Origin: a virus
Lineage: Duplodnaviria; Caudoviricetes
DNA length: 58,196 bases
Strand: one strand, 5' to 3'
IMG/VR virus record: IMGVR_UViG_3300027973_000066
Location: 1-58,196 of that record
Part shown: in pieces, positions 14,111 to 55,000 of the stretch
How positions within the stretch are numbered: position 1 is the stretch's first letter
How the letters are laid out: each line of letters opens with the position of its first letter
Notes under the pieces: generated by a model
The model's database searches: none
What the model was told of the DNA's origin: nothing
The model's input: only the letters and a program-made list of their open reading frames with translations
Program-made: the position numbers and the translations under genes

Positions 14111-14812
14111 TTAGTGGTTCCTTTCTGTTGAAGAGGTGGAGAGCGTCACGTTCGGGTTACCCTCACTATGCAGCTTCAGATACTCAACTGCGTTCATGAG
14201 GATCTCCGTGCTATCTTTCAGCTTACCAATCCCGGTGTTGCAGTCTGAACACAACAGCCCCCGGATTGCTCCAGTGATGTGGCTGTGATCCACAGACAGA
14301 GCTTTCAGCTTCCCACCACGCTTTTGCGTTTCGGGTTGAAGGCAAATAGCACACTTGCCTCCTTGAGCATCAAGCATCTTGTTGTAATCTTCCAACGAAA
14401 GGTTAAAGCGCCTTTGAAGGTGCGTCTTGCGCCAAAACACAGGGTTTTGTTCGCGATGCGCCTTCATGTAATCGGCACGGGTATCAAATTCCGACACGTT
14501 GCCAGTGCCTTGTGACACCTGCAAATTGTCAAAACGGCAATCTTTTTTATCACCATTTTTAAATCTAATACGCCGATCCGGCCATTCTCCAGTCATGTAA
14601 AACCAAGCAAGCCGCCCATCGGTCACTTCTTCGCCTTCAAGACGAATATAGCGATACCCATCGGTATCGCCAGAACCACCAGCACGACTGCCCGCCCTCA
14701 CATTTTTGGCGGGGCTAATTTTCCACACAAACGCGCCAGTGGCTGGATTGTAATCCAGCGCCTGCCGCACTTGCTCGTGTGAAAAACTAGGCACCTTTGC
14801 TTTACCCTTCAT
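14111..14812 (-). CDS. Free-standing homing endonuclease: degenerate HNH-like domain plus endonuclease VII domain
   Basis: N-terminal YNPATG.F.W...RLAW.YMTGEWP module; C-terminal CAIC...VDHSH.TG.IRGLLCSDCN. Start at MKGK after GAGAGGG. Confidence 0.85.
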   Translation of the reverse strand: MKGKAKVPSFSHEQVRQALDYNPATGAFVWKISPAKNVRAGSRAGGSGDTDGYRYIRLEGEEVTDGRLAWFYMTGEWPDRRIRFKNGDKKDCRFDNLQVSQGTGNVSEFDTRADYMKAHREQNPVFWRKTHLQRRFNLSLEDYNKMLDAQGGKCAICLQPETQKRGGKLKALSVDHSHITGAIRGLLCSDCNTGIGKLKDSTEILMNAVEYLKLHSEGNPNVTLSTSSTERNH

Positions 14813-14817
14813 TTTTT

Positions 14818-14872
14818 CCCTCTCTGGTTCACTATGTTTGAACCGTAAACCAGAGAGGGGGAAGATTGTCAA
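14818..14872 (-). promoter_or_regulatory. RBS-sequestering hairpin plus TTGACA box upstream of the endonuclease gene
   Basis: 12-bp inverted repeat at 14818-14829 / 14848-14859 covering the RBS; TTGACA at 14872..14867. Confidence 0.6.
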
Positions 14873-14909
14873 CTCCAGGATGGAGCTTTCCAAAAACCCT
14901 TTTAGATCA

Positions 14910-15821
14910 TTAGGTTGGAAAGCTACCATAGATTGCACGGAAGTTATAATATCCGAAGCTGTACCTCTCGTAGCCTTTCACCAGGAGGTTATCCGTGACG
15001 AAGTCGACTTGCATATCCGTCTCAAACTTGATGCGCTCCATGTAGGAGAGGCCATCAATGTTCGTGAGCAGGAACCAAGCGCGGCTCGACGTGAGGAAGT
15101 CGTTCACCATGTACGACTCTGGCAGGCCGCCAGCGGTCATCATGATTGCATTGACATCGTTGTCGGCAGTGCCAGGACGCAGTTCGGTCTTGGTCAGGCG
15201 GATAGCAACCGGCTCAAGCTGGGGCGGAACCACCAGCTTGCGAGCGCGGGCGAAGACCTTCAGGCCGGCCTGATCCTTGAAGTTCGTACGAACGGCGATC
15301 ATGCCGTTCAGCAGCGTGGCTTCATTCAGGTCAACGTCAGTCGTCGGGCGGTTCGCAACCGTGCCACCGTCAATCGGGTGGTCGGTGGCGCACAGAGCCT
15401 TGCCGTCACCACCAATCGACGCATTGTAGGTCGTGGCGGTGTTCAGCACGTTCGCGCCGTAGATTTCCTTGGTCTGCTGGAAGGACTCGATCAGACCGAG
15501 GTTCGACGGGTGGAACTGCGTCTTGTACAGGTTGTCGTCGATCGCCTTGCGGGTGATAGCATACCCCAGGGCGATTTCGGTGTGTTCCTGGTTGTACACA
15601 AAACGCTCACCAGCGCCCGAGTCAAATGCAGTCTGACCACCTTCGGTCTTCAACTGCGCAAGGCCCAGGTACCGCATTTCAGCAGTACGCTCGAGGGCCA
15701 TCTTCGAGTCGTGCTTGGTGAACACCTTGTCGTACTGCGACGGGATCATCTCATACTTGCCTTCGACACCGCGAAGGCCGGGCAGGAGAAGATCCTTAAT
15801 GGCACTAAGATTAACAGCCAT
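14910..15821 (-). CDS. Major capsid protein
   Basis: 303 aa with HK97-fold-type pattern (LGYAITRKAIDDNLY, GGDGKALC..DHP, KLVVPPQL, ERYSFG); AAGGAG RBS; gene position. Confidence 0.85.
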   Translation of the reverse strand: MAVNLSAIKDLLLPGLRGVEGKYEMIPSQYDKVFTKHDSKMALERTAEMRYLGLAQLKTEGGQTAFDSGAGERFVYNQEHTEIALGYAITRKAIDDNLYKTQFHPSNLGLIESFQQTKEIYGANVLNTATTYNASIGGDGKALCATDHPIDGGTVANRPTTDVDLNEATLLNGMIAVRTNFKDQAGLKVFARARKLVVPPQLEPVAIRLTKTELRPGTADNDVNAIMMTAGGLPESYMVNDFLTSSRAWFLLTNIDGLSYMERIKFETDMQVDFVTDNLLVKGYERYSFGYYNFRAIYGSFPT

Positions 15822-16666: not shown

Positions 16667-17278
16667 TCAGTCCTGCGGAATTGGCATGGGCTCATAACCA
16701 CGGCTGATTTTCGGCTTTACCTGGGCGTGGTCACGCCCAAATTGACCTTCAGGCGCTGAACCAAGCTGCGCCTCCTTGTGCTTCACCTGCTCCTTGGCAT
16801 TGCGCTGGTCAATGTTGCGGAATTGCTCGGTGATCACCTTGGGCCGCATCATAAGCTGCATGCCCTTACGCTCGATGGTGTGATAATTGCCGTTGGCCGG
16901 CATCATCTCAGGGTGACGGCTGGCAGGGACAGTCTCCCAGCCCGCGCGTGCCAGTTGGACCTGATACGCAGGGTCTTCCTGATTGTAGATGGTCTTGCGC
17001 TTCCACTCATAGCTCCAACCATCAGGGATCTTGTGGGGCTCGATGTAGAAGTCGTCAGTGCCCTCATCCAGGCCGCCCAGGTGCTGCATAATCTCAGCAG
17101 CGCGGCGAGCAGCAGCCGCACGAGGGTCTTCCTCACGCATAGCTGGGCGCATGGCCGGGCGAGAGACAGCAGCCTCCTGCTCAGGCGCTACAGCCTGCTC
17201 AAGAACTTCGCCTTCAGCGGCATCAACGGGGAGAATGCGACGGGGGCGGCCACGCCGGCCACGAATAGGAGCTTCCAT
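16667..17278 (-). CDS. Hypothetical head-region protein
   Basis: 203 aa; P.GW.Y.W and GWE.V motifs; lies between scaffold-like and capsid genes. Confidence 0.7.
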   Translation of the reverse strand: MEAPIRGRRGRPRRILPVDAAEGEVLEQAVAPEQEAAVSRPAMRPAMREEDPRAAAARRAAEIMQHLGGLDEGTDDFYIEPHKIPDGWSYEWKRKTIYNQEDPAYQVQLARAGWETVPASRHPEMMPANGNYHTIERKGMQLMMRPKVITEQFRNIDQRNAKEQVKHKEAQLGSAPEGQFGRDHAQVKPKISRGYEPMPIPQD

Positions 17279-17292
17279 GTTCTATTTCCTTC

Positions 17293-18168
17293 TCAGTGCA
17301 ACTTGCCTTCGCGCTTCAAGGCGATCTTGTTGCGCGCGTAATCCTCGGGCGACATGCCCATCATGCTAGCCATCTCACGCTCTTCGGAACTGAGCCTCAC
17401 AACATTAGGCCGGGTGCCAGATGCCGTGCCAGAACGAGACACAGGAGCAGCAGCAGGGGCCGATCGACGTTGTGCCGGCGCGGAAGCAGAAGACAGGGCG
17501 GATTCCTGCTCAACCACTGGCGCGCCAATACCCAGAACCTTTTCGACCGAAGCAAAATACTCGGGCGTGTCGGATGCAATGCCGTCAGCGGTCACAAGAT
17601 TGTGCGCTGCAATCATCTTCTGGGTCAGGCGAGGCGTGCGGGCATACTCAGGATGGGCCCGAACCCACGCAGCAGAAGGCGCAGACAGTTGCGAAGCCAG
17701 TTGCTCAACCGGATCCGCATGCTGCACCTGCTGAACAGGCTGCCTTGACTGAGCCTCCATGGCAGACATGCCGTTTTCAAGCTGAAGCAGCTTGGCGCGG
17801 GCGTCAGCCATCGCCTCCTGGTACTCGGCGGCGCTATCATAGTCGCCAACAGCCATCGCCTGCTTGTAATTACCCTTCAGGATATCCCCTTCGCGCTTCA
17901 TCGTGTCGATGGCAGTGCGAACAAGCTGAAGGTTGGAGCTATCCACCTCGCTACGGGCCTGCTGGGCCTGCGAGGTAGCCTGATGAGCGCGATATTCCGC
18001 CTCTTCACGGCCCTTGCGCTCAACTTCTAGCCGGCGGCGCAGTTCTTCCACACCATCTTCGGCGGAAATGACCGGTTTTGCCTCAGTTTCAACAACAACA
18101 TCAGGCGTTTCGGCCACAGGCTCATCAACCTGAACCTCAATTTCTTCGGTTTCTTTGGCGTCAGACAT
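17293..18168 (-). CDS. Putative scaffolding protein
   Basis: Acidic N-terminus, long coiled coil, C-terminal 'VRLS.EE..MA..MGMS.EDYA' helix; upstream of the capsid gene. Confidence 0.65.
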   Translation of the reverse strand: MSDAKETEEIEVQVDEPVAETPDVVVETEAKPVISAEDGVEELRRRLEVERKGREEAEYRAHQATSQAQQARSEVDSSNLQLVRTAIDTMKREGDILKGNYKQAMAVGDYDSAAEYQEAMADARAKLLQLENGMSAMEAQSRQPVQQVQHADPVEQLASQLSAPSAAWVRAHPEYARTPRLTQKMIAAHNLVTADGIASDTPEYFASVEKVLGIGAPVVEQESALSSASAPAQRRSAPAAAPVSRSGTASGTRPNVVRLSSEEREMASMMGMSPEDYARNKIALKREGKLH

Positions 18169-20741: not shown

Positions 20742-23700
20742 CTAGTATGACACGTTGTTGGCGTTGATACTGTTCGCCCCAGCCAACGAAATCGTCCCAT
20801 TTGCCACGTTGCCTACGCAGGCAGTGTAATCTGCGCCAAAGGCTTCCAACACCGAAGGCGAAACCGCCACGCTATCAAAGATATTGCCGTTCACAGAAAC
20901 TTGTAGTGAACTCAGAAGATAAAGATCAACGTTGGTGTTGGCGACAAAATAGCAACCCATAAATGAATGTTTTGAACCAGATACCACTGCTCCAAAATAT
21001 GAGTTGCTAATCTGGCAGGATGAAAATGACACCCCAGAGCAAGAAGCATTAATTTGAACAGCCGGCTGAGCTGGGCTTGCCCCAGCGGTGGCAAACTCTG
21101 ACGCTGAAAATTTCCAGTTTGTCGATGACGCCATGATCAATGCGCCGCCTGGGCATGTGGTGAAGGAACACGCGGCAGCGTCTCCCCAATCCTGCCCATT
21201 GATATTAAGCCCAACATTTTGGCCGTTTGTTGAGCAAGATGATAGGCGCACACCCTCATCAAACGCCCCAGCGCCGCCATTTATATAAAACCCACTGCCG
21301 CTTCCATTTTGAACTTTACAAGAAACAATGTCTGTGTCGGCGCAATTGTCGATAAAAACACCGTTGACGACACTGGAGATGAACATGTTTGATATGTAAG
21401 TGTTGGCGCAATACCGTAAATATACGCCATTGTTAAATGCGCCTTCAATGTTCAAATCATTTATTCTAATCTGAGAACATCTGATTGCGGAGGAGGTGCC
21501 GTCAATAACTATGGCGTTGCAGTTTGTTTTTGAATTTACCAAAAGCTTCATTCCAGCAACGCCAAACCCTGTTTTTATGGAGGTGGCCGCTGCATAATAG
21601 AAGATTGACGTGTTGTTTGCCGCGCACAAAAGCAAGGTAGCTTGAGGCCCCGCACCGTACAAAATCAATCCTGCTTTAAGGGTCAATGAGTTTACTAGGT
21701 AAGACCCTGCTGGAAAGTAAAGCACTCCAGAAGCTGCATTGATGGCGTTTTGGATCGCGGTGGTGTCATTTGTGACGCCGTCACCAACAGCGCCAAAGTC
21801 TTTCACGCTAAAAGTGTCAGCAGCTTTAGATTGCCAAGTGCGGGTGGTCGCGCCAGATCCAGTCTGCAAAAAGCCCTGAAAGGTTGCAGCCACCGCCCCA
21901 TTGCCGGTGTAGGCGTAGCCTGTTGGGCCAGTAGGCAGGCTTGCAGACCCAGGAGCGCCAGTGGGGCCTGTAGGGCCAGTGGGGCCGCCAGCAGGACCAG
22001 TAGGCCCTGTAGGACCTGTTGGACCAGAACCAGTAGGGCCAGTAGGACCAGTAGGACCGCCAGACGGGCCTGTGGGGCCTGTAGGGCCTGTGGGGCCACT
22101 AGAGGTAATGCCCTGAACAAATTTGTTTGTGCCGGTGCCGCCATCGGAAATGTTAGCAATAATGTTGTTGTTAATGACGTTACCAACTATCTGATAATAA
22201 TCAGACGGGCCAGAATTAACAAAAACACCGTAGGCTTGAGTGGTTCCTACGCCAGTAAACGAAGTGTCATTGGTAATGTTGTTTCCTGTAATGGAAAATT
22301 TAGAAATGCCGGAACCAACACCAACTCCCGCGCAACCCGGAGTTACAGTAGAATTAAGGGTAATAATGTTGTTGTTTATGCCAGATCCAAAACCAGCATT
22401 TAACAAAATGCCAAATTGAGCATTTCCCCAAATGCGGGTATTGGTGACCAAAAGCTCGCTACGCCAACTGTTGTTTGTAACAATGCCATTTCCTGTAAAA
22501 CTAGAACCAACCCAGCTTGTGGTAAGGAAGCAGCCTTCACCGCCATAAAGGCGGATTGCGTCATTCCATTGGTGATCGCACTCTAAATCAAAAGCATGCA
22601 ACCATGTTGGGAACGAATAAGACTCAAGAGTGTATGGTGCCCCTACACTGTCTTGCATCAAGACAGCAGTGCCACCCCACAAAAACGCAGAAGCTTCAAC
22701 AATTAAGCTGTGGGCATAAGAATCGTAAATAAGATGTATAAAGCTGGTTGAGCCAATTGTTACTTCAGAATTGTCCATAACAACACGAGAAATGACGCCT
22801 CTAAAACTACCAAGCTCAACAGTTCCATAGTATTTAATGCCGTAGGTTCCGTAAAAGGCGCGTAACTCACAGTCAACTATCTGGTTTCCGGTGCCCCACA
22901 TGGAGATTCCGTTGCCCGTGCCGGTAATCTTGCATGTTCTTACTTCACAAAAGTATGCGTTGTTTTCAAAAACAACTGCGTGTCCGCTTGTTAAATTGCT
23001 TGAACCGGTTTTCCGCCGGATATTGATTGACTCAATGATGCAGTGCTGCAAACCCGAAATGGTAATGACGGCATTACCGCTCGTGCCATCCCACTCAATG
23101 ATCGTCAGCCAGCCAGCGCCGCTTTCGCCGTAGATCCTCTGGCCGTTGGACACCATCGTCAGGCCAGTAACCACCCGGTAGTTACCCGGTGGCAGATAGA
23201 CGTTCTTCCCCGTGTTCAGCGCAGCCTGGATGGCGGCTGAATCATTCGTAGTGCCATCACCAACCGCACCAAAATCCAACACTGAAACAAAATCAGCCGC
23301 CTTATTCTGCCAAGTGCGGGTGACTGCGCTTGTCCCAGGCTGCAAGAAACCCTGAAAGGTAGCGCCGGTGGCCCCATTCCCGGTATAGGCGTAGCCTGTT
23401 GGACCAGTGGGCAAATTAGCAGCGCCAGAAGGCCCTGTGGCACCAGTAGGACCAGTAGGCCCAGTGGGTCCAGTAGGGCCTGTAGGACCAGTGCCAGTAG
23501 GTCCAGTGGGCCCAGTAGGACCAGTAGGCCCAGTGGGTCCAGTAGGGCCTGTAGGACCAGTTCCAGTAGGCCCGGTGGGGCCAGTAGGCCCAGGAGGCCC
23601 TCCAGACGGTCCTGTGGGCCCCGTGGGGCCGGTAGCACCAGCGCCAGTAGGCCCAGTAGGGCCCGTTGGCCCAGTAGGTCCAGTGGCTCCAGTAGCACCA

Positions 23701-24095
23701 AACCCAGTAGGCCCCGTAGACCCAGTGGGGCCCGTTGGCCCAGTAGGTCCAGTGGCACCCGTAGGCCCGGCTGGCCCACCAGAGGGGCCTGTTGCTCCAG
23801 TAGGCCCTGTAGGCCCCGTAGGGCCAGTAGCGCCGGCTCCAGTAGGCCCAGTGGGCCCCGTAGGGCCAGGAGGGCCACCAGACGGCCCAGTGGGCCCCGT
23901 AGGCCCTGTAGCACCACCACCAGCAGCGCTAATCGTCACCCGCCCAGGCGTTGTGGTGCTATCAATCGTGACATTGGTGCCAGCAGTCAGGGTCGAGAGA
24001 GCAAACCCCGCCCCATTGCCAATAGGGATCTGCCCAGCAGCAGGGGTCTTAACAATCTCTAACTTGGGGCCGAAGACGCCAATGTCGTTAGCCAT
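20742..24095 (-). CDS. Collagen-linked spike with two pectate-lyase-3 / beta-helix domains (putative depolymerase)
   Basis: GPT collagen runs; two [11 protein letters not shown]..ND..AIQ.A motifs, each followed by parallel beta-helix repeats. Confidence 0.85.
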
Positions 24096-24100: not shown

Positions 24101-27100
24101 TTAACCCCTATGCCGCATTGAGGCTGTTAGCTGCAAAGCGCGAACCAGACCGGGATCTAGGCTGGCTTGTTTCGTTTGATGGCGCGCATTTGTTTGCCCA
24201 CCCCACCTGCGATAAACAGGCGGTGCGCCGGGACTTCCTTGTGAAACTCCCTGGCTTCCAGTTGAGTTTTCATCGCCCGCGCCGAAGCGCTGTCTATGCC
24301 ATTGTGCTTGACGGCCAACTGGTACATTTCCAGCAAGGTGTCTTTCATATTCATCCTCCATTGCTACTTGGGTGTCGTACTCAACATATTTAGCATGCGA
24401 TACGCCATCAAATTTTGTAATTTCGTCAATAGCCCGCAGCATATCTCGTTTAGCTTTTTCGGAGCCTCCAGGACTACCCCCTAGTTCAGGAATGTACTGA
24501 AGGCGCAATCCGACATATTGCCCGTGTGGTGCGCCGCCGGCAAGCCTGTCTTTTGCGCGAAAATCCGTCACAAAGGTAAAGCCGGCGTCTATGCCAAGCT
24601 CATTTATTACCTTTGTGAGCGACTCAGTCGCTTTATCATCGAGCTTCTTCGTGAAGTAAACTTCCATGCCTGGGTTGGCGTTTTCTACGGCACCAGGAGA
24701 AACAACCTCAGACAAAAAGACCGCCTGCTGGTTGCGGCGCTGGCCTTCGCCAACAATGGATTTCCATGTGTTTGCCGGATCAAAATTTTGTCTGGTGACA
24801 AACTCAAGATCGTAGGCTTTCTCATCATAGATGTTCCCAGTGGGGTCAATGTAGCGACCACGGCTCGGGGTAGCCTTGGACATTATGACGCCAGGGGTGG
24901 AATTGACCGCCTGCCCAATGGCCGACTGGCCTTCAGCAAAAACTTCTGGTGTGGCAGGGTTTTCTTCCCGGTCAGGTGACAGGCCGCCAACAAAACGCCG
25001 CGCAACAGCCTGCATATCGTTCAGTTGCTGCGTTGCTGACGTGCGTGTTTCTTGCGCCTTCTGCTCAAGCGCACCCAGTTTCTGTTCAGCAGCAGGATAC
25101 TTTTGGATTGTGCTGCCGGCGGCTTTGGCAGTGCCCAAAATGCTCTTTGCCAACTCAACCGCTTGGGTTCTGTCGGTTATACCCATCCGCTCCATAACAG
25201 CATCGCGCTGCTTTGCGGATGTGCCATGCTCAAGAATCCATTTGTTTTCATCATACGCTTTTTGGGCGGCTTCTAACGGAGCCTTGTCGCTCAAGAAATT
25301 TGAAATCTTCCGGCGATCAGTAGCGGTGGTGTCATTTTCAGATTGCTGCCGAAGCTCTTTTAGCTTTGCCCTATCAGGCACGCCGGCAAAATTAGCTTCT
25401 TGCTCAAAAGAACCGCCCTCGCCTGTCTTGTTGGTCCAATCATTCTTAGTCCAATGTTCCTTTTCTAGGAACCAAACGATAGCTTGCAGATCATCATCGC
25501 CCAGGCCGGCAAAACGCGGGTCTTTACGAAGCTCTTTAGCCGCGTTTTGGAACGCCTGCTGCCCAAAACCAAACTCTCCTCCAGTTTGGATGCCAGTCTT
25601 TAGAGGATCAGCCAGATAAGAGCCTGAAACGCCGCTTTCTGAGGCGGTAGGAACAGGTTTCATTCCAGTCATACGGCGAAGGAACCTAGCAGCCCACAAA
25701 TCAATCGTGGCTTTGTCGGAATATCCAATCAAATTGCCGGTAAAATTAGGGGTTTTGGGGCTATCGCCAGCTTTCCGTTCGCGAAATTTGTCCAAAAACG
25801 CCATCATAGTTGCGGGTGTATTGGCATTAAAAAGCGTTCTGCCATCAGCCTTTGTAATTAAAGGAAATTCGCCTTCTTGGGCTTTTTGAAATGCAATGTC
25901 TTTGGCACGCTTTTGAATTTGCTTTTCATTGGTCAAGCCTTCTGATCTTGCCTGCTCGGTTGCAGCAGGCAGTGCCGCCTTCAGGTCATTCAAATGGCCG
26001 TTGATGTACCCCTTGCCGGCGGCAACGGATGCGCTTCCCATTTCGCCGCCATTATCAACCCAATCTTGCAGCTTGCCCAAGGCGCGATCATAAGATCCGC
26101 GTGAAAATTCAGACAGCGCTTCGATGGTGTTATCCCAGTTTTGACGAACGCCTGTTTGCGCGCTGGTGGCACCAAGGGTGTCTGCCATGATGTCGGCAAA
26201 ACCGCCGTACTCCTGGCGCAGCCGGTCGCGCATAGCTCGGTACCAATTGCGAGCCTTCATGATCACCGAAGCGTTTTTATCTCCAGCATCTTCGCGATTA
26301 GCAACTTCTTTGACGGCCTTAACAATGTTTTTGGTCACACGGTTAAGATGGGCCGGGTCCCAATCCGTTGCGCCCGTGCGCTGGTCTTTAGTGTCTTTGG
26401 GTTTGTGGAAGTTATAGGCTTGCTCTTGAACTTTTAGTTCTGGATAACCTTCCGCATCTCGCACAACTTTTTTTTCATTATCTATTTGAGCGCCAACAAT
26501 GTTAAACGGGGCCCATTCTGATGTTGGAAAACGGTTTTTTAGTCTACGATAAGAATACTCCACCTCTTCGGGGGTCAGTTTATGCGTTTGTGCAATTTGA
26601 TTAATTATTTGCGTGTCTTCTGGCGCAAGCTTTGCTTTGACTTCTTTTCTTTTGCCACGGTTAATGTTGAAATTAAAGTCTTCGGTTGTTTGGGTTACAG
26701 GCTGGTCGGCAACTGCCTTTGGCATCAAATTAGCCTGCGGCGCAGGCTGCGCTTGCGGCAACACTTGCTGCGCCATCTGCACAGGGTTTGGCTGCGCCTG
26801 CTGGGTGAGGCCTAGAGCCTTCTGCACAACAGGATCATCTTCGCCGCCGCCAGTGCCGTATCCGATCCTGCCGCCCGAAGAGCGGCCATACTGCTTGTGG
26901 ATCTTCTCCATAACCTTCCGGTCTTCGGGGGTGATGAAGTCTTCCGCGCCTTCATGCGCCGTCCAGGCCGGCATGATGCCCACCTTTTGGGGTGCGAACA
27001 CCGTGTCTTCTGTGCTTGCGTTGCGGTTGTTTTCGCCGTGGGGGCCAAAGTTAAGCCAGCTATTCTGGCCTCGCGTCTCGCTGGTCAGGGCAAGGCGAGC

Positions 27101-28594
27101 TAAGGGCGAATACATTGAAGCATGAGAACGCCACGCATTTTCTTCACCATCACTTCGAAAGCCTGAACCTTCTTTGGCGTGGCCAAAGTAGTCATGCACG
27201 GCGCGGAAGACATCGTTTACGGTGACAGGAATGCCATTCCAATATTCTCCAGTGTGAGCAAGAAGAGGGTTTCTTTTTACATCTTCTGGAGAAATTTCTT
27301 TTGAACCAAACCCAAATTGCGTAGGAAACACATACATATGATGGTTTTCATTTATGTCTTTAATTACCAAACGCGGGGATGCTTCGTAGGGGTTTTTTTC
27401 TTTTTCAGGGTTCCAAAAACTAAGTTTTAACCCAGCGGCTTTTGCCGCCCGATACTGCGCCATAGTTTCCTTAACCATAGCATCGTAAGCTGCCTTCACC
27501 AGAGGATGGTTGGCATTGTCTTCCATCTGTTCGTATTCATTAGAAATACGCTTGCCGCGCGTTAGATCAACTTTGGCGTATTTCTTCGGTGGATTATACG
27601 GAAGGCCGGCATCCCGCATATATTGTTCGGCAACGGAACGAACCAAGTGGTTAGGCCCAGCCGTGATTACCTCACCCGTGGAGGGGATTTTTATGCGCGT
27701 GGGAAGACCTTCGAGAGGTGCTTGATGCTGTGAAGGAACGACTCCTTCGCCTCCTGGTAGGCTTCGTCCGAAGGGTAGTTCTCCCGCTTGGGAGCCAGCT
27801 TCGCTATGTGTGGGGGCATTTTGACCGACATATGTATCTCCATGGTTAAGCACTGATCCGACAGGCGGTAGCATGCTTCCCTGCGTCAGGTCGAGGGCCT
27901 GTGGTGCAATATGATCATCGCCACCACCGCCGGCATAGCCAATCCTACCACCCCCTGCCTTCCCAGGCACAGCCTTCGCCTGAACGCCCTTCGCCGTCAG
28001 GAGGGCGGCGCGGATCTTCTTATCGGGGCTGCCAATCCGCCCGCCACGGGCGTTGCCGGCGCTGCCGGTGTAGTCACCGTTGTAGCTTTCATTGCGAGCA
28101 GCACGCGCCTCACGCGCCGCAGTCTCATCAAGCTCCCGCTGGTGGTTCTCGGCCCACGTCTTGTCAGCAAGCTGCCTTGAGGGATCAGCGGCAGGGTTGA
28201 ACTGGTACGTGTTCCGCAACTGGAAGTCGTTCGCACTCTGCACCGGATTGTAGTTGCTAACCGGCGCGCCTCCCTGCTGGCCGAACAGGCCGGCGATGCT
28301 GCGGAGGAGGGAGGAATAGTCAGGCTGGCCATTCATATTGAACTGTTGCTGGCCGCCCATGTTCGGCTGTTGTTGAGGCTGAGGATAGTAGGCGTTGCTG
28401 GAAGGCATCTGCCTGATGCCTTGGCCCCCTTGGAACTGCTGCTGTTGCTGGAACTGCTGGAACGGGTTGCCACCGCCCCCCTGGTTCGCCATGCCACCAT
28501 ACTTGCCAGTGCCAGACTGAGGCATCACCTGCGTGCTGATGTCATTGCCGGCAGACTGTGGGGCCGCCTGAGCCCCTGGAACACCACCACCCAT
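24101..28594 (-). CDS. Large multidomain (polyvalent-type) protein, probably virion-packaged
   Basis: 1497 aa coupled to the portal stop (TAATG); globular domains separated by GGRIG linkers. Confidence 0.75.
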
Positions 28595-30954
28595 TACCGT
28601 CCACCCTTCGCAATCTGTGCCAGCACCATCTTCGCCTGCTCAAGAGCAGCGTCATGGCGCTTCATATCAAATTCATGACTGCGCTGCTGACTTTCTCGTG
28701 CCTGCTGGCCTTCCAGCTTCATGGCCTCGATCTGCATCTTGGCCTTGCGGTCTTCCTCCTGGTTTCGGGCATCAGCAGCGGAGTTCATCAGGTTGTACTG
28801 GGTGTTCTCGGCCTTCTGCTGAAGCTCTGCCTTCTTCAGTTCCAGTTCTTCCGGCGACATACCCTTTGACCCTTCGGCCAGACCGCCGGCACCGAAAGAT
28901 TGCATGTCGAACTGAAGTTTCGCTTGGTCGAGTGCTGCGTCTGCTTGCAGTTTCTGAGTACGGGCTTGGGCTTCCATCTCCTTAATCCCAACCTCCTTTT
29001 GCTTAAGCTGGAACTCAGCGATCTTCTCCTGGATCTCAGGCGGCATCTTACCCTGCGCGCTGGGCGGTGCCATGAACTGCTCGGGGTTGTTCCAGCCAAT
29101 GGCCTGCAACGCCGCCTTGTCGATGGCAATTGGATCATACAGCCCAGGCTGCGCCGCCTGAAGCTGTTTTAGGGCCATGATCTTCATAATGCGCTGGGTG
29201 TGGGATGCCGTGTTCGGGTCGGCCTGGGGCACCAACTCGCAGTCGTTCAGGGCCGCCAGGAACGTCTGCTCGTCCCATGCGTAGGAGGGCTTGTTCTTCT
29301 TCTGCCAGAAGCTCTCAGGGTTTTCCTTGAAGCACCGCGCCAGCAGTTGAAACTCGGTGGCCTGGGCGGCGTGCATCCGCTTGTGGACACTGTTCATCAC
29401 CTTCTGGGCCTGCTCGATCATGGCGAGCGTGGTGCCCACTGGCGCATCAGCCCTGCCCTCACCAACAGCCTGCTCGCTCGTGCCGCCGATCCGCATGCCA
29501 GTCTGGGCCATGCTCTCAGTCAGGGCCATCAGGGCCTGGGAGGGCTCCTTGTAGGGTAGGGGCATCACGGCCTGACTGATAGGTAGGCCACCTGTCTTCA
29601 CCAGCGCTCCACCGCCAGGAGGAACGCGGAAGATGTTGGTGTTCTGGCGGGCACCAGTCTCAGCCATCAAGAAGCCGGGAAAGTTGGCGTACATGCCGGC
29701 ATCGAGGAGTTCGCGCCACGCTGCCGTGATGGCGTTGACGGTGTTGCCCAAGATGTGCAGCAGGCCAATGTCGTAGAAGCCAAAGCCGGGCACGAAGGTG
29801 TACTTGACGAAGTTCTGCCGCGCCTCGGGCAGTTCGCCATCCTCATCGTAGTTCCGCACGATGGAGAGGATCTTCTTGCTGCTGGCGTCGATGGTCACCC
29901 GGTAGGGGATCTCAAGGCCGGTGACCTTGCCTTTGAACTTGTGGTGGAAGCCCTGCACATCCAGTTCGCAGTAGCACTCATAGATCTCGCGGTCGCGGTC
30001 GTCAGGGTTGGTGACGGAGACGGCGATGCCCTCCTGGCTGCGCTTCTCAAGCTGCACGCTGTCAAGCTGCGCCATGTTGGGGGTGTGGAGGTCAATGTCC
30101 TTGTACACGCCCAGGATCTGCATGCGCCGCACCACGCTGGGGCGCATGTACACCCGGTGGGTGATGCGCTTGGCGTTGCTCAGGTCAGTGGCGGCATTGT
30201 TCACAATCAGATCTTCGGCATCCACCGTCTCACTCACCGGGCGGTTGCGAAGGGGGCAGAAAGTGATCTTCTTGAACGCAGTGCCGCCGAACCCCAGCAT
30301 CAGCAACATGCGGTCGGTGTCGGGGTAATACTCGGTGGCCACCGCCGTCAGGTAGTGGTTGAGATCTTTCTCGAGGGCGTTGGCCAGCTTGTCCTGCTCG
30401 AGGTTGGCGTTGTTGCTGTCGTTCCGCACCTTCACCGGCCCATCGGTGGGCAACAACTCGCTCCTGGCATTGGCCTGGAAGCGCAGCACAGCCTCAAGGA
30501 GCAGGGGGTGGCGAACTCGGCTCATACCCTCCACAGGAGCCCCGTCAGCGGCCCCCTGAAGGCCTGGGATCTCGATCTTGAGGCCAAGGAGGCGCAGGCC
30601 GGTAGCGCGGTCTTCCACCCAGTCCTGGCGGCTCTGCTGGTCGTCTGAGATGCCGCGCATCAGTTCATCGGAGATGCGGGATAGCTCGAGGTCATCAATC
30701 TTATCGACAAGGTTATCGAACCAGCCGGGCGGGTTTTCGTCGTCTTCAGCGTCGGCAACGGGGCTGCCGTTCAGGCTGACAGTGATGCTGCCGTCGGGGT
30801 GATCAATGCGAAGGATATTGCCCTTGTCATCCATCTCGGGCACGTCTTCGCCCTCATCAGCGTCGATGATCTCAATATCCGCCGCTTCGGGCAGGGGCGC
30901 TGCTGGCGCTGCTTCTTCACGAATATTGGCGCTAAGGCCAGGGACGAGGGGCAT
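28594..30954 (-). CDS. Portal protein
   Basis: 786 aa directly after terL; HPLL.EA..FQA.A..EL.P..GPV and PG.GFY..GL.H..G motifs; C-terminal coiled-coil barrel. Confidence 0.85.
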   Translation of the reverse strand: MPLVPGLSANIREEAAPAAPLPEAADIEIIDADEGEDVPEMDDKGNILRIDHPDGSITVSLNGSPVADAEDDENPPGWFDNLVDKIDDLELSRISDELMRGISDDQQSRQDWVEDRATGLRLLGLKIEIPGLQGAADGAPVEGMSRVRHPLLLEAVLRFQANARSELLPTDGPVKVRNDSNNANLEQDKLANALEKDLNHYLTAVATEYYPDTDRMLLMLGFGGTAFKKITFCPLRNRPVSETVDAEDLIVNNAATDLSNAKRITHRVYMRPSVVRRMQILGVYKDIDLHTPNMAQLDSVQLEKRSQEGIAVSVTNPDDRDREIYECYCELDVQGFHHKFKGKVTGLEIPYRVTIDASSKKILSIVRNYDEDGELPEARQNFVKYTFVPGFGFYDIGLLHILGNTVNAITAAWRELLDAGMYANFPGFLMAETGARQNTNIFRVPPGGGALVKTGGLPISQAVMPLPYKEPSQALMALTESMAQTGMRIGGTSEQAVGEGRADAPVGTTLAMIEQAQKVMNSVHKRMHAAQATEFQLLARCFKENPESFWQKKNKPSYAWDEQTFLAALNDCELVPQADPNTASHTQRIMKIMALKQLQAAQPGLYDPIAIDKAALQAIGWNNPEQFMAPPSAQGKMPPEIQEKIAEFQLKQKEVGIKEMEAQARTQKLQADAALDQAKLQFDMQSFGAGGLAEGSKGMSPEELELKKAELQQKAENTQYNLMNSAADARNQEEDRKAKMQIEAMKLEGQQARESQQRSHEFDMKRHDAALEQAKMVLAQIAKGGR

Positions 30955-31033: not shown

Positions 31034-32677
31034 TTACGGAGCGCCGTACAGTGGCGCAGGGTCTTTGCCGATATGGCGCATGCTCTCCTGCACCTGGGCA
31101 GTCCACTCCTCGCCCCGCGTCAGCATGCCTAGCTCTCGCATGTGGCGAAGGGCTTGGGACACCGTGTCCACAAGGTCATCGTGCTTGCCACGGGGGAAGG
31201 AGCCCACCTGGGTAATGACCTTATCGGCCCAGGTGCGGTCAGGGCAAAACACCATGCCTTCAGCAAACAGGTGCTGGATGCTGTAGAGCCTGGATAGCTT
31301 GTCCTGGCTCTTCGGGTCGATCAGCATGACGGCCCAGTCCTCGTGGCCGAACAGCCGCCGGATCTCCTGCGCCACGCTGATGCCGGCGGCCTTGTTCTCG
31401 ATCAGGAGGCGATCAACCTTCATGGATTTGCAAGTGTCGGCGGCCTTCTTCACCAGTTCGTGTAGCTCGAGGCGTTCGGCCCAGGCGGTCATGAGCATGA
31501 CGCGCGGGTGCTGCTGGCTGTAGGCGCGCTCGACACCATCCTCGGTCTTGACGCTGCGGGCCATGACATCGCCGCTAAAGACACCCCAGACGGTCAGGGC
31601 GGAGTAATCCCCATCAGACTTGGTGGTGTAGGCGGTGTCCAGGCTGGCGATGATGAAGTCCATTGCCGGGTAGGCGTCGTGTTCCCACAACTGCCACCAC
31701 TCGCGCTTGATGATGCCGCCGCCTCGAGGCTCTGGCCGCTGCTGAAGCTGGCCGGCAACGGCGTAGGGGCCCATCACCGCCTTGTCGCGCTCGACCACAT
31801 CTTCCGGAAACCTTTCCGGAAAGAGCAGTTCGCCGTCTGTAGTGCGAGGATCTGCGAAGGGGACAGGCTCATCCTCCCACTCTGGCCACCACTCGACGGG
31901 GGTGGAGCAGGCGCGGTCTGCCTCAAACTCCATGGGCAGCATCAGGTGCGTGTAAGGCAGAGCCTTGTCGAGGATGGTGCCGCTTACATCCTCCTCGTGC
32001 AAGCGCTGCATGATCACGATGATTGCGGAATTTTTCGGGGAGTTCAGGCGGGTGGGCACCGCCTCGAGGAACCAATCGAGGGTGCTTTGCCGCTGCTGCT
32101 CTGATGCCGCGCTCTCGACGCTGTGAGGGTCATCGATGATAACGCGATCACCACGAGAGCCTGTAATCGTGCCGGCGGCCACGGCTTCGCGGAAGCCCAT
32201 GGATGTGTTCTCAAACTTCAGCTTGGCGTTCTGGTCCTTGGCCAGGGAGACATGAGGCCAGCAGGCCTGATACCACTCCGACACCACCAGCCGGCGCATG
32301 CGGACATTGTCGCGGATGGCGAGGTTCTGGCTGTGGCTGGCGCATAGGTAGCGCAGGTGGGGCATGCGCTGCGGCCCCCACTCCCACGCCGGCCAGAACA
32401 CGCCCACCAAAAGCGACTTCATCGTGCCTGGGGGGATGTTGATGAGGAGGCGGTTGAGCTTGACCCCATCGATCTCCTCTCCGGCTGTGACAGCCTCGAG
32501 GTGAGCGCACAGGGCGTCGATGTGCCAGCCATGAACATAGGCCTGCCCAGGCTCCACGATGTGCCAAGCGAGGCGCACAAAGGCCGCTAGGCTCTCCTCG
32601 CAATCGGCGCGATCAAGCTGGAGGAGAGCATCGCTGGGATCGACGGTCATGCCGTCGATCTTGATCAAGCGGGTCAC
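31034..32677 (-). CDS. terL: Terminase large subunit
   Basis: INIPPGTMKS Walker A, IIDDP Walker B, IMQRLH, QQRP; nuclease motifs SLDTA and HDDLVD. Confidence 0.95.
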   Translation of the reverse strand: MTRLIKIDGMTVDPSDALLQLDRADCEESLAAFVRLAWHIVEPGQAYVHGWHIDALCAHLEAVTAGEEIDGVKLNRLLINIPPGTMKSLLVGVFWPAWEWGPQRMPHLRYLCASHSQNLAIRDNVRMRRLVVSEWYQACWPHVSLAKDQNAKLKFENTSMGFREAVAAGTITGSRGDRVIIDDPHSVESAASEQQRQSTLDWFLEAVPTRLNSPKNSAIIVIMQRLHEEDVSGTILDKALPYTHLMLPMEFEADRACSTPVEWWPEWEDEPVPFADPRTTDGELLFPERFPEDVVERDKAVMGPYAVAGQLQQRPEPRGGGIIKREWWQLWEHDAYPAMDFIIASLDTAYTTKSDGDYSALTVWGVFSGDVMARSVKTEDGVERAYSQQHPRVMLMTAWAERLELHELVKKAADTCKSMKVDRLLIENKAAGISVAQEIRRLFGHEDWAVMLIDPKSQDKLSRLYSIQHLFAEGMVFCPDRTWADKVITQVGSFPRGKHDDLVDTVSQALRHMRELGMLTRGEEWTAQVQESMRHIGKDPAPLYGAP

Positions 32678-33198
32678 TCGCTGGCCTTCGCCGCCTTCAG
32701 TGCGGCACGCAGGGCGGCTCGAGCCTCGGGATCTAGAGAGGTGGCGTCAATCGTGGTTTTGACCTCAGTCTGGATGGGAGCGCCATCAGCGCCTGTCACC
32801 TCAGTCTTGGTGATGTCGTGCCAGCCTTGGGCTGCTCGGCTTCGGTTCTTCAGTCCGAACAATGCGGCGGTAATGTTTCCAGGCGCACCATCTGCAATGT
32901 CACGCACGCGCCGCTCCCACCACGTAGTGCCGGCAACGCGCCCGTTCTTTACGGCATCAGAAAAACTGGGGTGTTCATGCTGCCAGCGGTACATGCTGTC
33001 ATGGCTCAGGCCAATCATGCCGGCAGCGCCATCGAGGCTGTAGCCCTGCGCCATCAGGTCAAACACCTGCTGGGCGATCTCGGGCGTGTACTTCGTAGGC
33101 CGGCCTCGCTTGGGTTGCTCAACAGCCTTCACCACCGCCGCAGGCGCGGCGGGCTTCGCTGGCTTTCCTTTGCGCTTGGGGGCAGGGGCGTTGGGCAT
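32674..33198 (-). CDS. terS: Terminase small subunit
   Basis: GRPTKY + HTH + 'EVTGADGAPI' tail; GTGA overlap with terL; AGGAG RBS before MPN. Confidence 0.85.
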   Translation of the reverse strand: MPNAPAPKRKGKPAKPAAPAAVVKAVEQPKRGRPTKYTPEIAQQVFDLMAQGYSLDGAAGMIGLSHDSMYRWQHEHPSFSDAVKNGRVAGTTWWERRVRDIADGAPGNITAALFGLKNRSRAAQGWHDITKTEVTGADGAPIQTEVKTTIDATSLDPEARAALRAALKAAKASE

Positions 33199-33226
33199 TT
33201 GATGATCTCCTGCCCCTGCATATACG

Positions 33227-33256
33227 AAAAACCCCCAGCTTTCGCCAGGGGTTTGT
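33227..33256 (-). terminator. Rho-independent terminator
   Basis: CCCCTGGC-GAAA-GCTGGGG followed by GTTTTT. Confidence 0.7.
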
Positions 33257-33259
33257 TGG

Positions 33260-33607
33260 TCAAGATCTAAAACCGTGAAGAATGACCGGCGCATCAAAAT
33301 TGAAGAAACATATTGGCTCATCAGAAAACCTAAACCAGTAATTAAGCGGACTGTACCATTCTCCGTCTTTGCGCTTCCGAATGCGAATCACAGAATAATC
33401 TGGGTCACTCCTAACATCCCAGCCTTGGCCTTTCCAATTTTTCATATTGCTTCTGCATTCAGGTGGCACTGGCTTGGAAGCATCTCGAGAAATCCACATG
33501 CTGCGGATTTCCATTGTCTTATCGCTAATAAGGCGCACCACTTCATAAGGGTCAGCTTGAGTTAAAACATCATCGTCATTGAAGCTAAGTTTGATTGCGT
33601 ATTTCAT
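33260..33607 (-). CDS. Hypothetical protein
   Basis: 115-aa ORF, AT-richer than its flanks. Confidence 0.6.
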   Translation of the reverse strand: MKYAIKLSFNDDDVLTQADPYEVVRLISDKTMEIRSMWISRDASKPVPPECRSNMKNWKGQGWDVRSDPDYSVIRIRKRKDGEWYSPLNYWFRFSDEPICFFNFDAPVILHGFRS

Positions 33608-51900: not shown

Positions 51901-52022
51901 GGCTCATTTAGGGCCGCAACAAATGCCTCACGATTGGTTGGCCGATTTGGCCTTTGCTCTTCTTGAGGCTTCAAAGCCTCAATAATTGCGTTTGCGTTAG
52001 GGCGGAAAGGTTCTTCAGGCAT
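48918..52022 (-). CDS. Large putative internal virion / DNA-ejection protein
   Basis: 1034-aa helical protein with Gly/Ala-rich hydrophobic stretches; follows the 1700-aa gene. Confidence 0.7.
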   Translation of the reverse strand: MPEEPFRPNANAIIEALKPQEEQRPNRPTNREAFVAALNEPQVPYERSTVERIGRIAGMLPAGFNEAVYNTVGMPVDLATGILNLPSRAARLAGYDAPLIENPALGSDWIKTQLGRIDPGLNPSNIQPENNIEAFARGAGSGAGSALTMAGQVYGLGRAGLERLAPQAYNIASRAFGNLAPGTTAANVALSAPATGAGEITERAIRRAEDENPEQGGASWAPLARMATEILTGGATAAGWNAARATTQAGREYLRPFTRSGRDAGAAQAIYENSSDPNAVRRRLAEPRQELVPGSEPTMPQVVQDPNLLQFERSVAGQALAMGDQSFEAVRRAQNAARVEALNNIQTTGDPRDVSKFIRNQFDEIDQQEMAAVERARTEAADRASRVGGESTPEDYGASIRNSLENAAERARENRKDLYDAVDPEKNLNVVSSSVRTRANEIYGNLGPMAQQPEGAENTIRELTRNLEDVTSFQNLRDLDTHITDAMSNEMRTNGRSTAWGRLSQLKTAVASAIDNAVENQIVHERAQPPGAGGSQLTMEQRLRQVWGLEPPPAQTLIPNMTDEASAALEEAKKAHAAYAQTFQQGPVGAILRTGGFSGQYRIPDPTVATTMFTSGQKGYDRAMAFRNAVGDDAAAIGVMQDYATMSMLRAARGADGVIDPAKFERWATQHQDALRAFPEISRRFSGAVEASNVAAEMAARQAEVAQRNSRNSLAQFINRDNPDAVNVTAEVGNILNKRNSGQLIGELASTVSNNPEARDGLRRAVADHITETYVSPTFGDNVNNLNSAQIYGARLQRFLRQNQLALSHVFSRDELNSINNIAADIRRSDMSLNSTRMPGQSNTAVDMLAQSRQDTNNRSKFEFFRTLHARALSGFGTGLGFGYQVGSPMLGGIIGGTLGALYHPIALAREAGITSMHGLIREAMLNPDLANSLLQRNPIRPNTGSDVDLSRALARMSVYSGIGAEANEPERGYEVRATRASGGRITSHHRAKAQALINAADRAKKAHNGNTKPILDMPDETVAKALSLADQAI

Positions 52023-55000
52023 TATTGTGTTCCTGTCGAATAGGCTTGTGCGCGATTCAGAACAGTATAAGGGGTTTCTGCATCTAGCCCATTAAAGCGG
52101 AAAACTTGCCCTGGCCGAACATTTGCAAATGCCCTCTGCACTGCCGGCGGAGCATTGTCAGGCATCACATAAGTTTGTCCTGGCACCCAATTGCGCTGGG
52201 CATCTTGTGGAAGTTGCATACCACGAATGTTGCCAACCCTACGCTCTGCTGCCGTTGTAAAGGCCTCGCTTGGGTTTGCCCGTGACCACGCATCATAAAA
52301 TGCAGACGGGCTATTCCAACCTTGCTGCTGCGCCGCTTGCCAATCAGTCTGGAACTGCCTCAAGCGATACAAAGAACTAAGCCCGTTGGTGAGCATTTGA
52401 TAATTTGCTTGAGGAGTATTGGTAATTGACGGCATGCCAGAAGACTGAACTCGGCTAAACTCAGCTTGAGTAAAACGAGAGTTAATAGCGGCTAATTGTT
52501 GAAGAGCAGCATTTAGACCTTCTTTTCCAAGCCATTGCTGGGCATCAACTTGACCTCTATTAATCGCATTGGCAATATCAGGCATACCCAAATCAGCCGC
52601 GTATGCAGCGACAAATCCCGTCATTTCGGAAGTGCGGCCAGATTGGAACAACTGTAGTGCGCGAGCCATAGAATGATAACGCTTAATGGCCTCGTCCATT
52701 ACGGGGCCACTTGTGAGGTAGCTGTTCATATCCGCATCGCGCTCAATTGCCTGTTGAGCAGGGCGGCTAAGCTCCCGAATTTGAGTACCCGGCGGAAGAT
52801 TTTGAGGAATAGGTGATCCGCCACCAGGAGGAGGTGCTGGAAGAGCCGTTGTTACAGCAGCGGTCGCTGGTGCCACCGTGGCAGTAGCAGGGCGCTGTTC
52901 ATTAGCCGCAGGAGAAGGAGCAGCGGCGGGTTGTTGAACAGCCCCTTGAGGCGCAGGCGCTGAACTACCAGAAGGCGGCGCACGGCGTCTTGTTGGCTGA
53001 ACCAAAGTCCCAGTTGCCGGGTCAATGTATGGCGCAAATTCATTTTCCGCTTCAGCGCGAGCGAGTGCCTCTTCCCTAGCACGTTGGGCATCACGCGCTA
53101 TTTGCCGTTGTACAAAAAAGTCATTCTCTGGCCCACCATTAGGGTCTGGAATGGGTGTTTTGCCAGTACGGTATTCCCGTAGTTCATTTCGCAAACGGTC
53201 ACGAGTCGATATTAAATCGGCAGGGATGTTACCTATGCCTAAATTATTGCCAGCAATTTCAATTTCATGCAAAGTGCGATTGAGATCAGCAACTATTGGC
53301 TCCAAGAACCTGTTTGCTTGTGCAAGCGCAGCAGCTTCTTGCGGATTGGCGGGAGGGGCAGCACTAACATCTGGCGTCCCCGTTGCCGCAGGAGGCGCAT
53401 TTGCACCCGCCGTGGGAGCAGCAGGGCGAGCAACAATAGGAGAAGCCCCAGAAGTAACCGCCGGTTGATTACCCCCCCCAGCAGGCGCTGCCTGAGGAGT
53501 GGTTCCACCAGCAGGCGCTGCCTGACCGGCAGCAGGAGCCGCAACGGTTCCTTCAGCGGTTGGGCGCGCTTGCGCGTCAGACATGGCCCTGGCGCTTCTG
53601 CTGCCTGTCATCAAAGCATTGAAGAGTGTAGCGCGCTGTTGGGCGTGCTGTTCAGCGGTAAGCGGCGCACCACCAGTTTGATCAATAAACGCGATGCTGC
53701 CGTCAGGCCTGACAATACGCCTGTAGCGTTGATCGAAATTGTTCAAAACTTGCAGCGCAGCCTGTTGAGAAGCCGTCTCTTCGCGCGTTGCAGCCGTGCG
53801 AGCTTGTTCCTGAGACACTTCAAGCTGGCCACGAGCAACCTGCTGCTCTTCAGCCTTGTTCTGCATTGCAGCGTATTGCTGCGCGCCACCAGCCACGCCC
53901 TGAAGCAGGGCAGAGCCAAGGTAACGGCTGGGCGAAGATGCCATGGCACCAAGGCCGCTTAGAATGGGAACGAACCAATCCTGGTTGCGCTGCAACCAGT
54001 TGCCTTCGCCGCGCTCCCTTGGATAAGTGAAGTTTACACCAGAGCGCTGTTGGCGTTCTGCAACGCGGTTAGAACTTCCGTCGCCACCATCTGCACTAAC
54101 ATTCTGCGCCACAGCAAGTCCAGCCGGTGGTGTAGTGGCAGCCTGAGCCGTTCCATCCAACCCAGCAGGCAGCCTTGCGTTGCGATAATTGTTATCAAAC
54201 TGCTCACGCAGTTGGGCTACAGTCATGTCGCGTAGTTCGGGATTGGCTCTAATAACCTTAGGCCCGACCACAGACGCAACGGATGCGTCAGGCGCAGCGC
54301 CAAGAAGAGAGCTTGCACCACTTCCGCCAAAACGATGCGCCAAGGCCAAAGTGCTGGGAGTTACCGCATAACCAGCAGTACGAAGCACGGGCGCATTTTG
54401 CCCTGCGTACCAGTCTGAGGCGCGGCGAGACATGGCCTCATCGTTTCGCGCTGCCGATACCTGCTCGGGCGTCATGCCTTGGAACAATGATGGGTGGGCC
54501 GCAGTGAAATCACCCCAGGTGGCATCAATAAATTGATGTGGACCACCTGCCGAGCTACGCGGGTTGCGCGCATTTGGCCTGCCGCCACTTTCGCGCTGCC
54601 TTACAATGTCGGAATAATCCCGTGCCTCCTGCGGGGTTAGGCCGCCGGGCGCTGCATTTGCATTAACGGCAGGGGCGTTTTGCTGCTGCGGAACAAGGCC
54701 AGCAGTCACCAGCCTGCGGTTCATGCGAGCATCAAGCTCTTCAGGAGGTATTACTAAACCATCAACAGGAGCCTCTGCCGCAGCCACCCCAGGTTCTTCC
54801 ACAACCGTACCAGCCGTCTGATACCCATGCCGCATGCCGGCAAGCCCGCCGCCGGCAAAGTGCCCACGGTCGGCGGCGTCTTCAGTGGCCTTGCGGTAAT
54901 CAACAGTACGGTATCCGCCGGCAAGGCCAACCGCGCCAGGGTGGTGCTTTTCAACGTCCTGAGCAATCAGGCCGATCTGGGTGGCAGGCTCGCCCTTGTA

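Follow-up and report, generated by a model that had tools for sequence, protein, structure and literature searches.

Polyvalent proteins of phages are a known class; what separates their modules, and how these are exchanged and reach the virion, is the question raised by a long gene lying immediately after the portal gene of a tailed phage (Duplodnaviria; Caudoviricetes) recorded in IMG/VR as IMGVR_UViG_3300027973_000066. The stretch of DNA analyzed, hereafter the window, is the complete record of this phage and spans 58,196 bp. The gene encodes a protein of 1497 amino acids (aa), P0001, in which short linker peptides (L1 to L3) mark the boundaries of folded modules and a related peptide closes the C-terminus (Table 1). 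We find that cargo is exchanged at these linkers among close relatives and that the same kind of peptide recurs at the ends of free-standing open reading frames (ORFs) in others. On balance, we favor the view that P0001 is a polyvalent protein of fused cassettes whose linkers are retained tags, with virion addressing or docking and a service as recombination joints as their likeliest roles. In this lineage a defined peptide grammar marks the ends of cassettes in fused and separate form alike.

Domain architecture of P0001

Homology searches returned 339 homologs of P0001 at E<=1e-3 among 7998 scored candidates. A first-pass annotation made from the sequence alone had described three GGRIG...AL.L linkers and a C-terminal LVRALQLTA, and all of these are present in the translation, the last at aa 1483-1491 (nucleotides (nt) 24122-24148). 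Between the linkers and low-complexity spacers lie two globular parts, domain A and a four-part C-module, so that the polypeptide contains at least two unrelated globular domains. Their sets of homologs are separate: among 265 homologs, 108 contain domain A and 176 the C-module, with only 20 containing both. The earlier description of P0001 as a modular protein of polyvalent type next to the portal is supported. No folded part separates L1 from L2, which lie side by side, and the slot between them is empty in the window's copy. Helices of the L1 type open ORFs in relatives (M..DKAIRAAKLT..). The linkers are not DNA repeats of one another, the single match among them being one of 27 nt at 70% identity between L1 and L2.

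The N-extension in front of the N-terminal tag is Q/N/G-rich and prion-like, and its repeat number varies among orthologs of 88-91% identity; most family members open directly with the tag helix and have no such extension.

Exchange of cargo at the linkers

The slot occupied by this gene, between the portal gene and the remaining head genes, is hypervariable. Two close orthologs, P0002 (91% identical) and P0003 (88%), differ from P0001 only by indels in the N-extension, and two others, P0004 and P0007, carry additional modules, including an ART-PolyVal domain, exactly between L1 and L2; P0007 has indels in the N-extension too. The best-resolved case is the locus L006, the portal of which is 97% identical to that of the window and the product of which is 99.3% identical to P0007; it has the ART-PolyVal domain and a second module in the L1-L2 slot. 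Homology of its DNA to the window extends to aa 172 and, after a break, runs across L1 to approximately aa 217; there follow 1065 nt absent from the window, and the homology returns at aa 215, in the GGRIG of L2, from where it continues at 94% identity to the end of the contig. A further locus, L005 (portal 98% identical), departs after aa 209 into other cargo. The breakpoints of DNA homology among these near-identical phages fall inside linkers, and the set provides natural empty and filled slots among phages with 97-98% identical portals.

Cargo is also swapped after L3. P0033/36/39, P0037 and P0038/42 align to P0001 only over approximately aa 213-617 (P0037 up to aa 1041) and are different downstream of L3, yet have the same final tail. 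Other homologs fuse P0001 modules to PF18760 (ART-PolyVal), PF18823 and PF18838. The earlier proposal that cargo varies while the linkers persist is hence borne out both in near-identical phages and across relatives of about 35% identity; since the cargo changes while the linkers stay, the family does not show the uniform end-to-end conservation that the first-pass annotation had named as the outcome speaking against its plug-in platform.

Linkers as terminal tags of separate ORFs

In the related record MW202675.1, whose portal is 62% identical, separate ORFs make up the post-portal block; they open with an L1-type helix (MDNEKAIRAAKLT.. or MTDAVKRALDMV..) and close with an L3-type tag (..VSKALALTRSFTKR or ..IDRALSLTSRYT..). 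This organization was followed across portal-anchored loci, 36 of 80 being chosen for downstream sequence, of which 35 had at least 4 kb downstream; the 31 loci with a recognizable ORF like P0386, a Gly/Pro-rich protein that closes the variable block in the window, were kept, and nested ORFs were removed. The cassette block of these 31 loci comprises 51 ORFs, one of them (in L010) a tail-spike gene, with one to three ORFs totaling 406-2656 aa per locus. The strict tag regex matches within the first 28 residues of 29 of the 51 cassette ORFs versus 1 of 108 other ORFs from the same loci, and within the last 45 residues of 20 of the 51 versus none of 103. Many of the misses are visible variants that went uncounted, for example ..GGSVVDRALMLS.. 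and ..DAVQKAVYIARQHKRGRP. Besides the AL.LT type of tag, a LAKSVKP / HALSKV type is seen in L030, L037, L042, L043, L047 and L079. The lineage as a whole comprises at least 596 related portal loci. Judged by these sequences, the linkers are more than spacers. Cassettes that are ORFs in their own right in relatives bear such tags at their N- and C-termini, and the linkers are these tags, kept in the fused protein.

Arg-Gly-Arg-Pro motifs also recur in this group of proteins. Many cassette ORFs (in L013, L014, L019, L022, L030, L035, L056, L065 and L069) end in ..RGRP(PS), and P0465 of the window (16667-17278, minus strand) opens with ..RGRRGRPRR.., while the tail of P0001 itself ends in RHRG, without the motif. 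We take the motif to resemble an AT-hook, and such tails may contact DNA.

Motif statistics and conservation of the linkers

GGR[IVLM]G has five matches in the window, all six frames counted, and three of these are in the frame of the cargo ORF. The accompanying helix was captured by the strict regex [VILMFA]xxA[LM]x[LIM][TSA], which is found three times in P0001 and three times in the 38 other ORFs scanned; one of the outside matches is near the end of P0387 (1034 aa), 12 residues before its C-terminus. L1 is a variant form that this regex does not match. In the 265 homologs the helix motif occurs 172 times, as against 56.3 +/- 6.9 (maximum 74) in 50 shuffles. Nearly half of these occurrences (84/172) lie in the last 60 residues, which make up 3.6% of all residues, and 97 of the 172 have a GG at most 25 residues upstream, where about 20% would be expected. 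The motif follows domain A within 70 aa in 78 of 107 domain-A proteins, and GGx[VIL] precedes domain A within 110 residues in 73 of 102 copies; GGx[VIL] is also present in 49 of the 124 proteins with a complete C-module. A position matrix built over all 3665 GG sites contains almost no information, which rules out GG by itself as the signal; the signal is the composite of GG beside the helix (169 distinct instances).

The conservation of individual residues was taken from an alignment of 13 proteins that are 33-94% identical to P0001 overall. L3 has twelve invariant positions (G574, G578, Y579, G582, G583, D586, D587, P588, V590, Q591, A593 and T597). In L2, G223 and G224 are invariant, and Y220, D227 and A233-T237 are at least 90% conserved. 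In the tail, A1486, L1487, L1489 and T1490 are invariant though the preceding modules of the relatives are unrelated. In degree of conservation the tags equal the enzyme cores.

Further proteins with this grammar, and base composition

This grammar is also displayed by another family of large proteins, represented in the phage by P0387. The C-terminal 55 aa of P0387 open with SGGRIT and close, after helices, with a tag-like segment (Table 1); in 28 of 77 homologs this tail is at least 90% identical, and the bodies preceding it fall into seven unrelated clusters. By its sequence it looks like a portable constant tail on swapped bodies, and some members of the family carry PF18763, PF18823 or PF01464. 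P0386 in turn has about ten motifs of the [KR]xGG[KR][VI] type and a tag-like N-terminal helix, and the cassette block ends with one of its orthologs in each of the 31 loci. The likeness of the P0387 tail and the P0386 motifs to the linkers is one of grammar, and they may be homologous or merely alike. In P0386 there is also an extended stretch of prolines, and a C-terminal unit of 33 aa is present twice in exact tandem.

The first-pass annotation had noted that the DNA of the globular regions is AT-richer than that of the linkers. The G+C content at third codon positions (GC3) bears this out, and amino-acid composition is not its sole cause. Core genes have a GC3 of 0.78 (portal), 0.80 (TerL) and 0.74 (major head protein). 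Within P0001, the values are 0.73 for the N-extension, 0.66 for L1-L2 and 0.64 for L3 with its spacer, as against 0.50 for domain A and 0.36-0.53 for the C-module; other variable genes have 0.47 (tail spike), 0.42 (P0387) and 0.54 (a 1700-aa protein). This pattern fits resident tags flanking foreign or younger cargo, and expression-level effects on codon usage may be an alternative source of the split.

The folded modules

Domain A has 526 short homologs of 146-466 aa and is also part of many longer proteins, among them gp16 of OANV1 and a 'large polyvalent protein' of a cyanophage (OL906435.1). Its AlphaFold2 (AF2) model, from a 40-row alignment, has a pLDDT of 93.9 and a pTM of 0.91. A Foldseek search of the PDB returned no match (best E 0.77). 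The wide VIA search had as its best hit YbeY at a non-significant Z of 2.7 (root-mean-square deviation (rmsd) 4.0, 108 residues aligned), and a second VIA search of the PDB gave one row only, at Z 2.1. Pfam at E<=1 held nothing relevant for this domain, and the ESM Atlas held unnamed viral clusters only. In BFVD there are 21 matches at E<=1e-3, all of them phage proteins; where these have a name, it refers to polyvalent, ART-PolyVal or head-morphogenesis domains, and one is a 1390-aa 'phage head morphogenesis domain-containing protein'. The invariant residues H467, D468, H472 and H491 suggest, from sequence, a metal-dependent enzyme. A reading of the HD..GH motif as that of an HD phosphohydrolase was dropped, as no HD fold appeared in any search.

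Relatives of the C-module occur in 779 representative clusters when the cut-off is E<=1e-3 and in 307 when it is E<=1e-30, and the proteins concerned reach 4461 aa. Its AF2 model (pLDDT 90.0, pTM 0.85) has four parts: a small N-terminal domain, a helical domain (aa 747-1069), a coiled coil and two ferredoxin-like domains (aa 1198-1409). Foldseek against the PDB gave nothing convincing (best E 0.012), and a profile of the module found nothing relevant among PDB sequences. The domain-wise Foldseek check that the first-pass annotation had proposed thus yielded no PDB fold match for either domain A or the C-module, the putative host-takeover or anti-defence effectors of its platform. For the helical domain, the top VIA row is 3n0u_A, an 8-oxoguanine glycosylase (Z 7.5, rmsd 4.5, 184/209 residues, model 113-424), a middling match to a candidate HhH-GPD fold; a search for HhH-GPD (PF00730) found no match in the genome at E<=10, with all 14 controls detected. 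The domain has an invariant K947 and D965, 18 residues apart, which we take to resemble the catalytic pair of glycosylase/lyases. The ferredoxin pair gives a middling VIA match (Z 9.2) to 5en5_B, the porter subdomains of AcrB, which we regard as reflecting a generic tandem ferredoxin-like arrangement. In Pfam, P0001 has no recognized polyvalent domain above cut-off, and a match to DUF7178 stays below threshold (16-19 bits versus a cut-off of 27). Abundant, confidently modeled and without a match among solved structures, domain A and the C-module are good targets for structural and functional work.

Gene order and neighboring genes

On the minus strand the genes follow the order TerS, TerL, portal, P0001, tail spike, P0386, a GroES-like gene, the scaffold-like gene and the major head protein (Table 1). 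P0001 is therefore placed among packaging and virion genes of a portal-terminase system, with TerS, TerL and the portal upstream and the tail spike and head genes downstream. The last base of the portal TAA is also the A of the ATG that starts the cargo ORF; this 1-nt overlap is compatible with translational coupling of the two, in line with the coupling to the portal that had been proposed earlier.

Table 1. Coordinates of P0001, its parts and associated genes in the window (all on the minus strand; subdivisions of P0001 are given with their residues)
Feature	Position (nt)	Strand	Remarks
TerS	32674-33321	-	
TerL	31034-32677	-	directly upstream of portal
Portal, SU10 type	28594-30954	-	PF23899 3.4e-13; phrog_1216 2.3e-29
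Polyvalent cargo ORF P0001	24101-28594	-	1497 aa, no internal stop
N-extension, aa 1-181	28052-28594	-	Q/G/N-rich low complexity; length differs among orthologs
Linker L1, aa 182-201	27992-28051	-	GGRIG then helix IRAALLTA; equals N-terminal tag of relatives
Linker L2, aa 214-238	27881-27955	-	GGRIGY-Gly run; right edge of empty cargo slot 1
Spacer, aa 239-299	27698-27880	-	low-complexity composition
Domain A, aa 300-565 (266 aa)	26900-27697	-	conserved folded module; phrog_3170 2.2e-15
Linker L3, aa 573-598	26801-26878	-	
Spacer, aa 599-639	26678-26800	-	Q/P-rich composition
C-module, aa 640-1440 (~800 aa)	24275-26677	-	
C-terminal tail, aa 1441-1497	24104-24274	-	tag helix LVRALQLTA
Tail spike, collagen/beta-helix	20742-24095	-	
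P0386, basic Gly/Pro-rich, 572 aa	18911-20629	-	closes variable block
Scaffold-like acidic coiled-coil protein	17293-18168	-	
Major head protein	14910-15821	-	
P0387, 1034 aa	48918-52022	-	
P0387 C-terminal tail, 55 aa	48921-49085	-	SGGRIT ..(helices).. ETVAKALSLADQAI

The tail spike combines collagen-like repeats (GC up to 0.72 at 23500-23900) with a beta-helix of the pectate-lyase type, and the ortholog in L010 is flanked, like the spike gene of the window, by the cargo ORF and the P0386-like gene. The major head gene is overlapped at its 3' end by an ORF with HNH and Endonuclease VII domains (14111-14938, minus strand), probably a homing endonuclease. The 1700-aa protein (52022-57124, minus strand) has two stretches of Peptidase_S74 (endosialidase chaperone) near aa 303-351 and matches the PHROG annotations 'virion structural protein' and 'DNA ejection protein'. 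In this protein a self-cleaving fiber-like N-terminal part may be joined to a large internal protein.

Proposed mechanism and its rivals

We propose that the post-portal ORF was assembled by fusing cassettes that are separate ORFs in related phages. Each cassette would have a short N-terminal amphipathic helix (..AIRxALLTAK..) and a C-terminal bipartite tag, consisting of a Gly-Gly-x-Ile/Val element and an Asp-Pro-capped helix (..DPxVQxALxLT+). Upon fusion these tags would stay behind as linkers, and so every module boundary would be marked. The tags would be kept because they work as peptides, their likeliest job being to dock the modules into the procapsid on the portal, an internal core or the shell, from which the docked cargo would leave with the DNA. 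The Gly runs could act as flexible joints, and the conserved tag DNA could provide common crossover points for the exchange of cargo within the lineage. By analogy with related protein classes (PMC5512222 and PMC4819975, in the passages compared), and from the genome context, P0001 is probably packaged. A head-to-tail scheme, with the C-terminal tag of one ORF docking on the N-terminal tag of the next, was set aside, because fused forms keep C-terminal tags with no N-terminal tag following. A predicted complex of the portal with L3 (aa 556-612) scored 0.00 with controls not run and speaks neither for nor against binding.

If the linkers are addressing tags, they would provide a sequence rule for listing the proteins that these phages probably inject, and would explain the free fusion and fission of genes in the post-portal region. 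We advance more tentatively the wider idea that the Gly-Gly-x-Ile/Val element, the Asp-Pro helix and the N-terminal helix constitute a portable virion-addressing tag of a large uncultured podovirus-like lineage. In that case any bearer would be taken into the procapsid, on its portal, core or shell, and would leave with the DNA upon ejection; a foreign protein could be loaded by means of the tag alone, and the whole repertoire of injected effectors could be read from sequence alone.

Several observations weigh against the linkers being addressing tags. The helix motif is absent downstream of domain A in 29 of the 107 domain-A proteins, and 149 of the 265 homologs lack the strict form altogether. 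It is clade-specific, being found downstream of only 6 of the 124 complete C-modules. The 265 proteins were gathered by homology to P0001 and are hence not an independent sample, and the strict regex, designed after examples had been seen, overlooks many visible variants. L2, domain A and L3 are passed on as one block in all relatives, so in part L2 and L3 may belong to domain A as its extensions. In cultured phages with a more distantly related head module (HTVC027P and the Caulobacter phage RW), the slot has small ORFs only, which means that this head type does not need the cargo system. Lastly, our searches found no cultured close relative and no virion proteome, the closest record, MW202675.1, being itself from an uncultured phage.

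The main rival, which we consider unlikely, is that the linkers are putative cleavage sites, at or near whose Gly-Gly a polyprotein is cut into modules, either within the head or once injected; split ORFs would then bear pro-peptides as their terminal tags, and the GG-rich P0386, with its ten or so GG motifs, would be degraded likewise. Fusion and fission at the tags indeed look neutral, as if fused and split forms yielded equal mature products, and the processing of polyvalent proteins into individual units has been proposed (PMC5512222, main text). The weak fold matches of domain A also include the zincin-like metallohydrolases YbeY, abylysin, jannalysin and IrrE, at non-significant Z scores of 2.0-2.7. 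However, a six-frame search of the genome at E<=1 found none of Peptidase_S78, S49, MPTase-PolyVal (PF18818) and MuF (Phage_Mu_F, PF04233, for which the controls were detected and P0001 has no Pfam match), and no protease family was recognized among the 26 ORFs scanned with PHROGs or Pfam. MPTase-PolyVal is likewise missing from the Pfam lists of the 120 homologs listed, and outside the close clade the residues around the GG are only loosely conserved. The lack of matches to these families in the genome fits a protease-less, podovirus-like assembly, and these negative results favor binding or addressing tags with flexible joints over cut sites.

More doubtful again is the possibility that the linkers have no function of their own, being flexible spacers and extensions of domain A that look conserved only because they are young recombination joints. 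This would agree with the movement of L2, domain A and L3 as a unit, with the 82% DNA identity over 77 nt between L3 of the window and L2 of L006, and with the mosaic gene indicated by GC3. Set against it are the occurrence of the same grammar at ORF termini that lack domain A, after unrelated modules and on P0387, the survival of invariant linker residues at 33-38% overall identity, and the fact that the linkers of P0001 are not DNA repeats. Least probable of all is that P0001 is a late cytoplasmic or lysis-related multi-enzyme and no virion component: some relatives are annotated 'lysin', among them OANV1 gp16 (PMC9239159), and some carry M15/VanY and CHAP cell-wall hydrolase domains, but podovirus muralytic domains are typically on internal virion proteins in the part of PMC4819975 that treats them, OANV1 gp16 is reported to be similar to Bbp10 (PMC9239159, in its account of gp16), which is listed as a homolog of internal virion protein D (PMC4819975, Table 2), the P0001 gene follows the portal within the head gene block, and one domain-A relative is fused to a head-morphogenesis domain.

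Comparison with known systems

P0001 has the architecture and the context of the phage-type polyvalent proteins, which were predicted by Iyer et al. 2017 (PMC5512222) to be packaged and delivered with the DNA. As in the main text of that study, there are several unrelated globular modules per polypeptide with a portal-terminase system nearby, and relatives of P0001 carry ART-PolyVal, InPase, M15 and GNAT domains. Unlike the proteins cataloged there, P0001 has no cataloged Pfam domain above cut-off and no MPTase. The junction peptides are not described in the main text of PMC5512222, where the words 'linker' and 'glycine' both occur zero times.

The location directly after the portal gene and the variable, effector-like C-terminal parts recall the MuF/SPP1 gp7 minor head proteins, as these are portrayed in the same main text. 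P0001 differs from them in that the genome has no PF04233 at E<=1 and in that its constant parts are short peptides rather than a folded anchor domain. A third likeness is to the internal virion proteins of podoviruses, which are large, house lysozyme and cytoplasmic domains and serve as vehicles for varying enzymatic domains (Hardies et al. 2016, PMC4819975, in its sections on these proteins). The putative link to internal virion protein D runs through OANV1 gp16, which shares domain A, and Bbp10, and comes from the literature (PMC9239159 and PMC4819975, in the parts concerning these two proteins). P0001 departs from the podovirus proteins described in those sections in following the portal rather than the tubular tail B gene, and from the long helical ones among them in having globular alpha/beta modules.

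Literature searches found no description of this linker peptide. The nearest candidate parallels are the targeting sequence of the T4 internal proteins and the cargo-loading peptides of encapsulins, short terminal peptides that send cargo inside an HK97-fold shell. Like the tags of the P0001 type, these are short, portable and borne by unrelated cargo, a likeness of description only; unlike them, the P0001-type tags occur at both ends of their cassettes and also internally.

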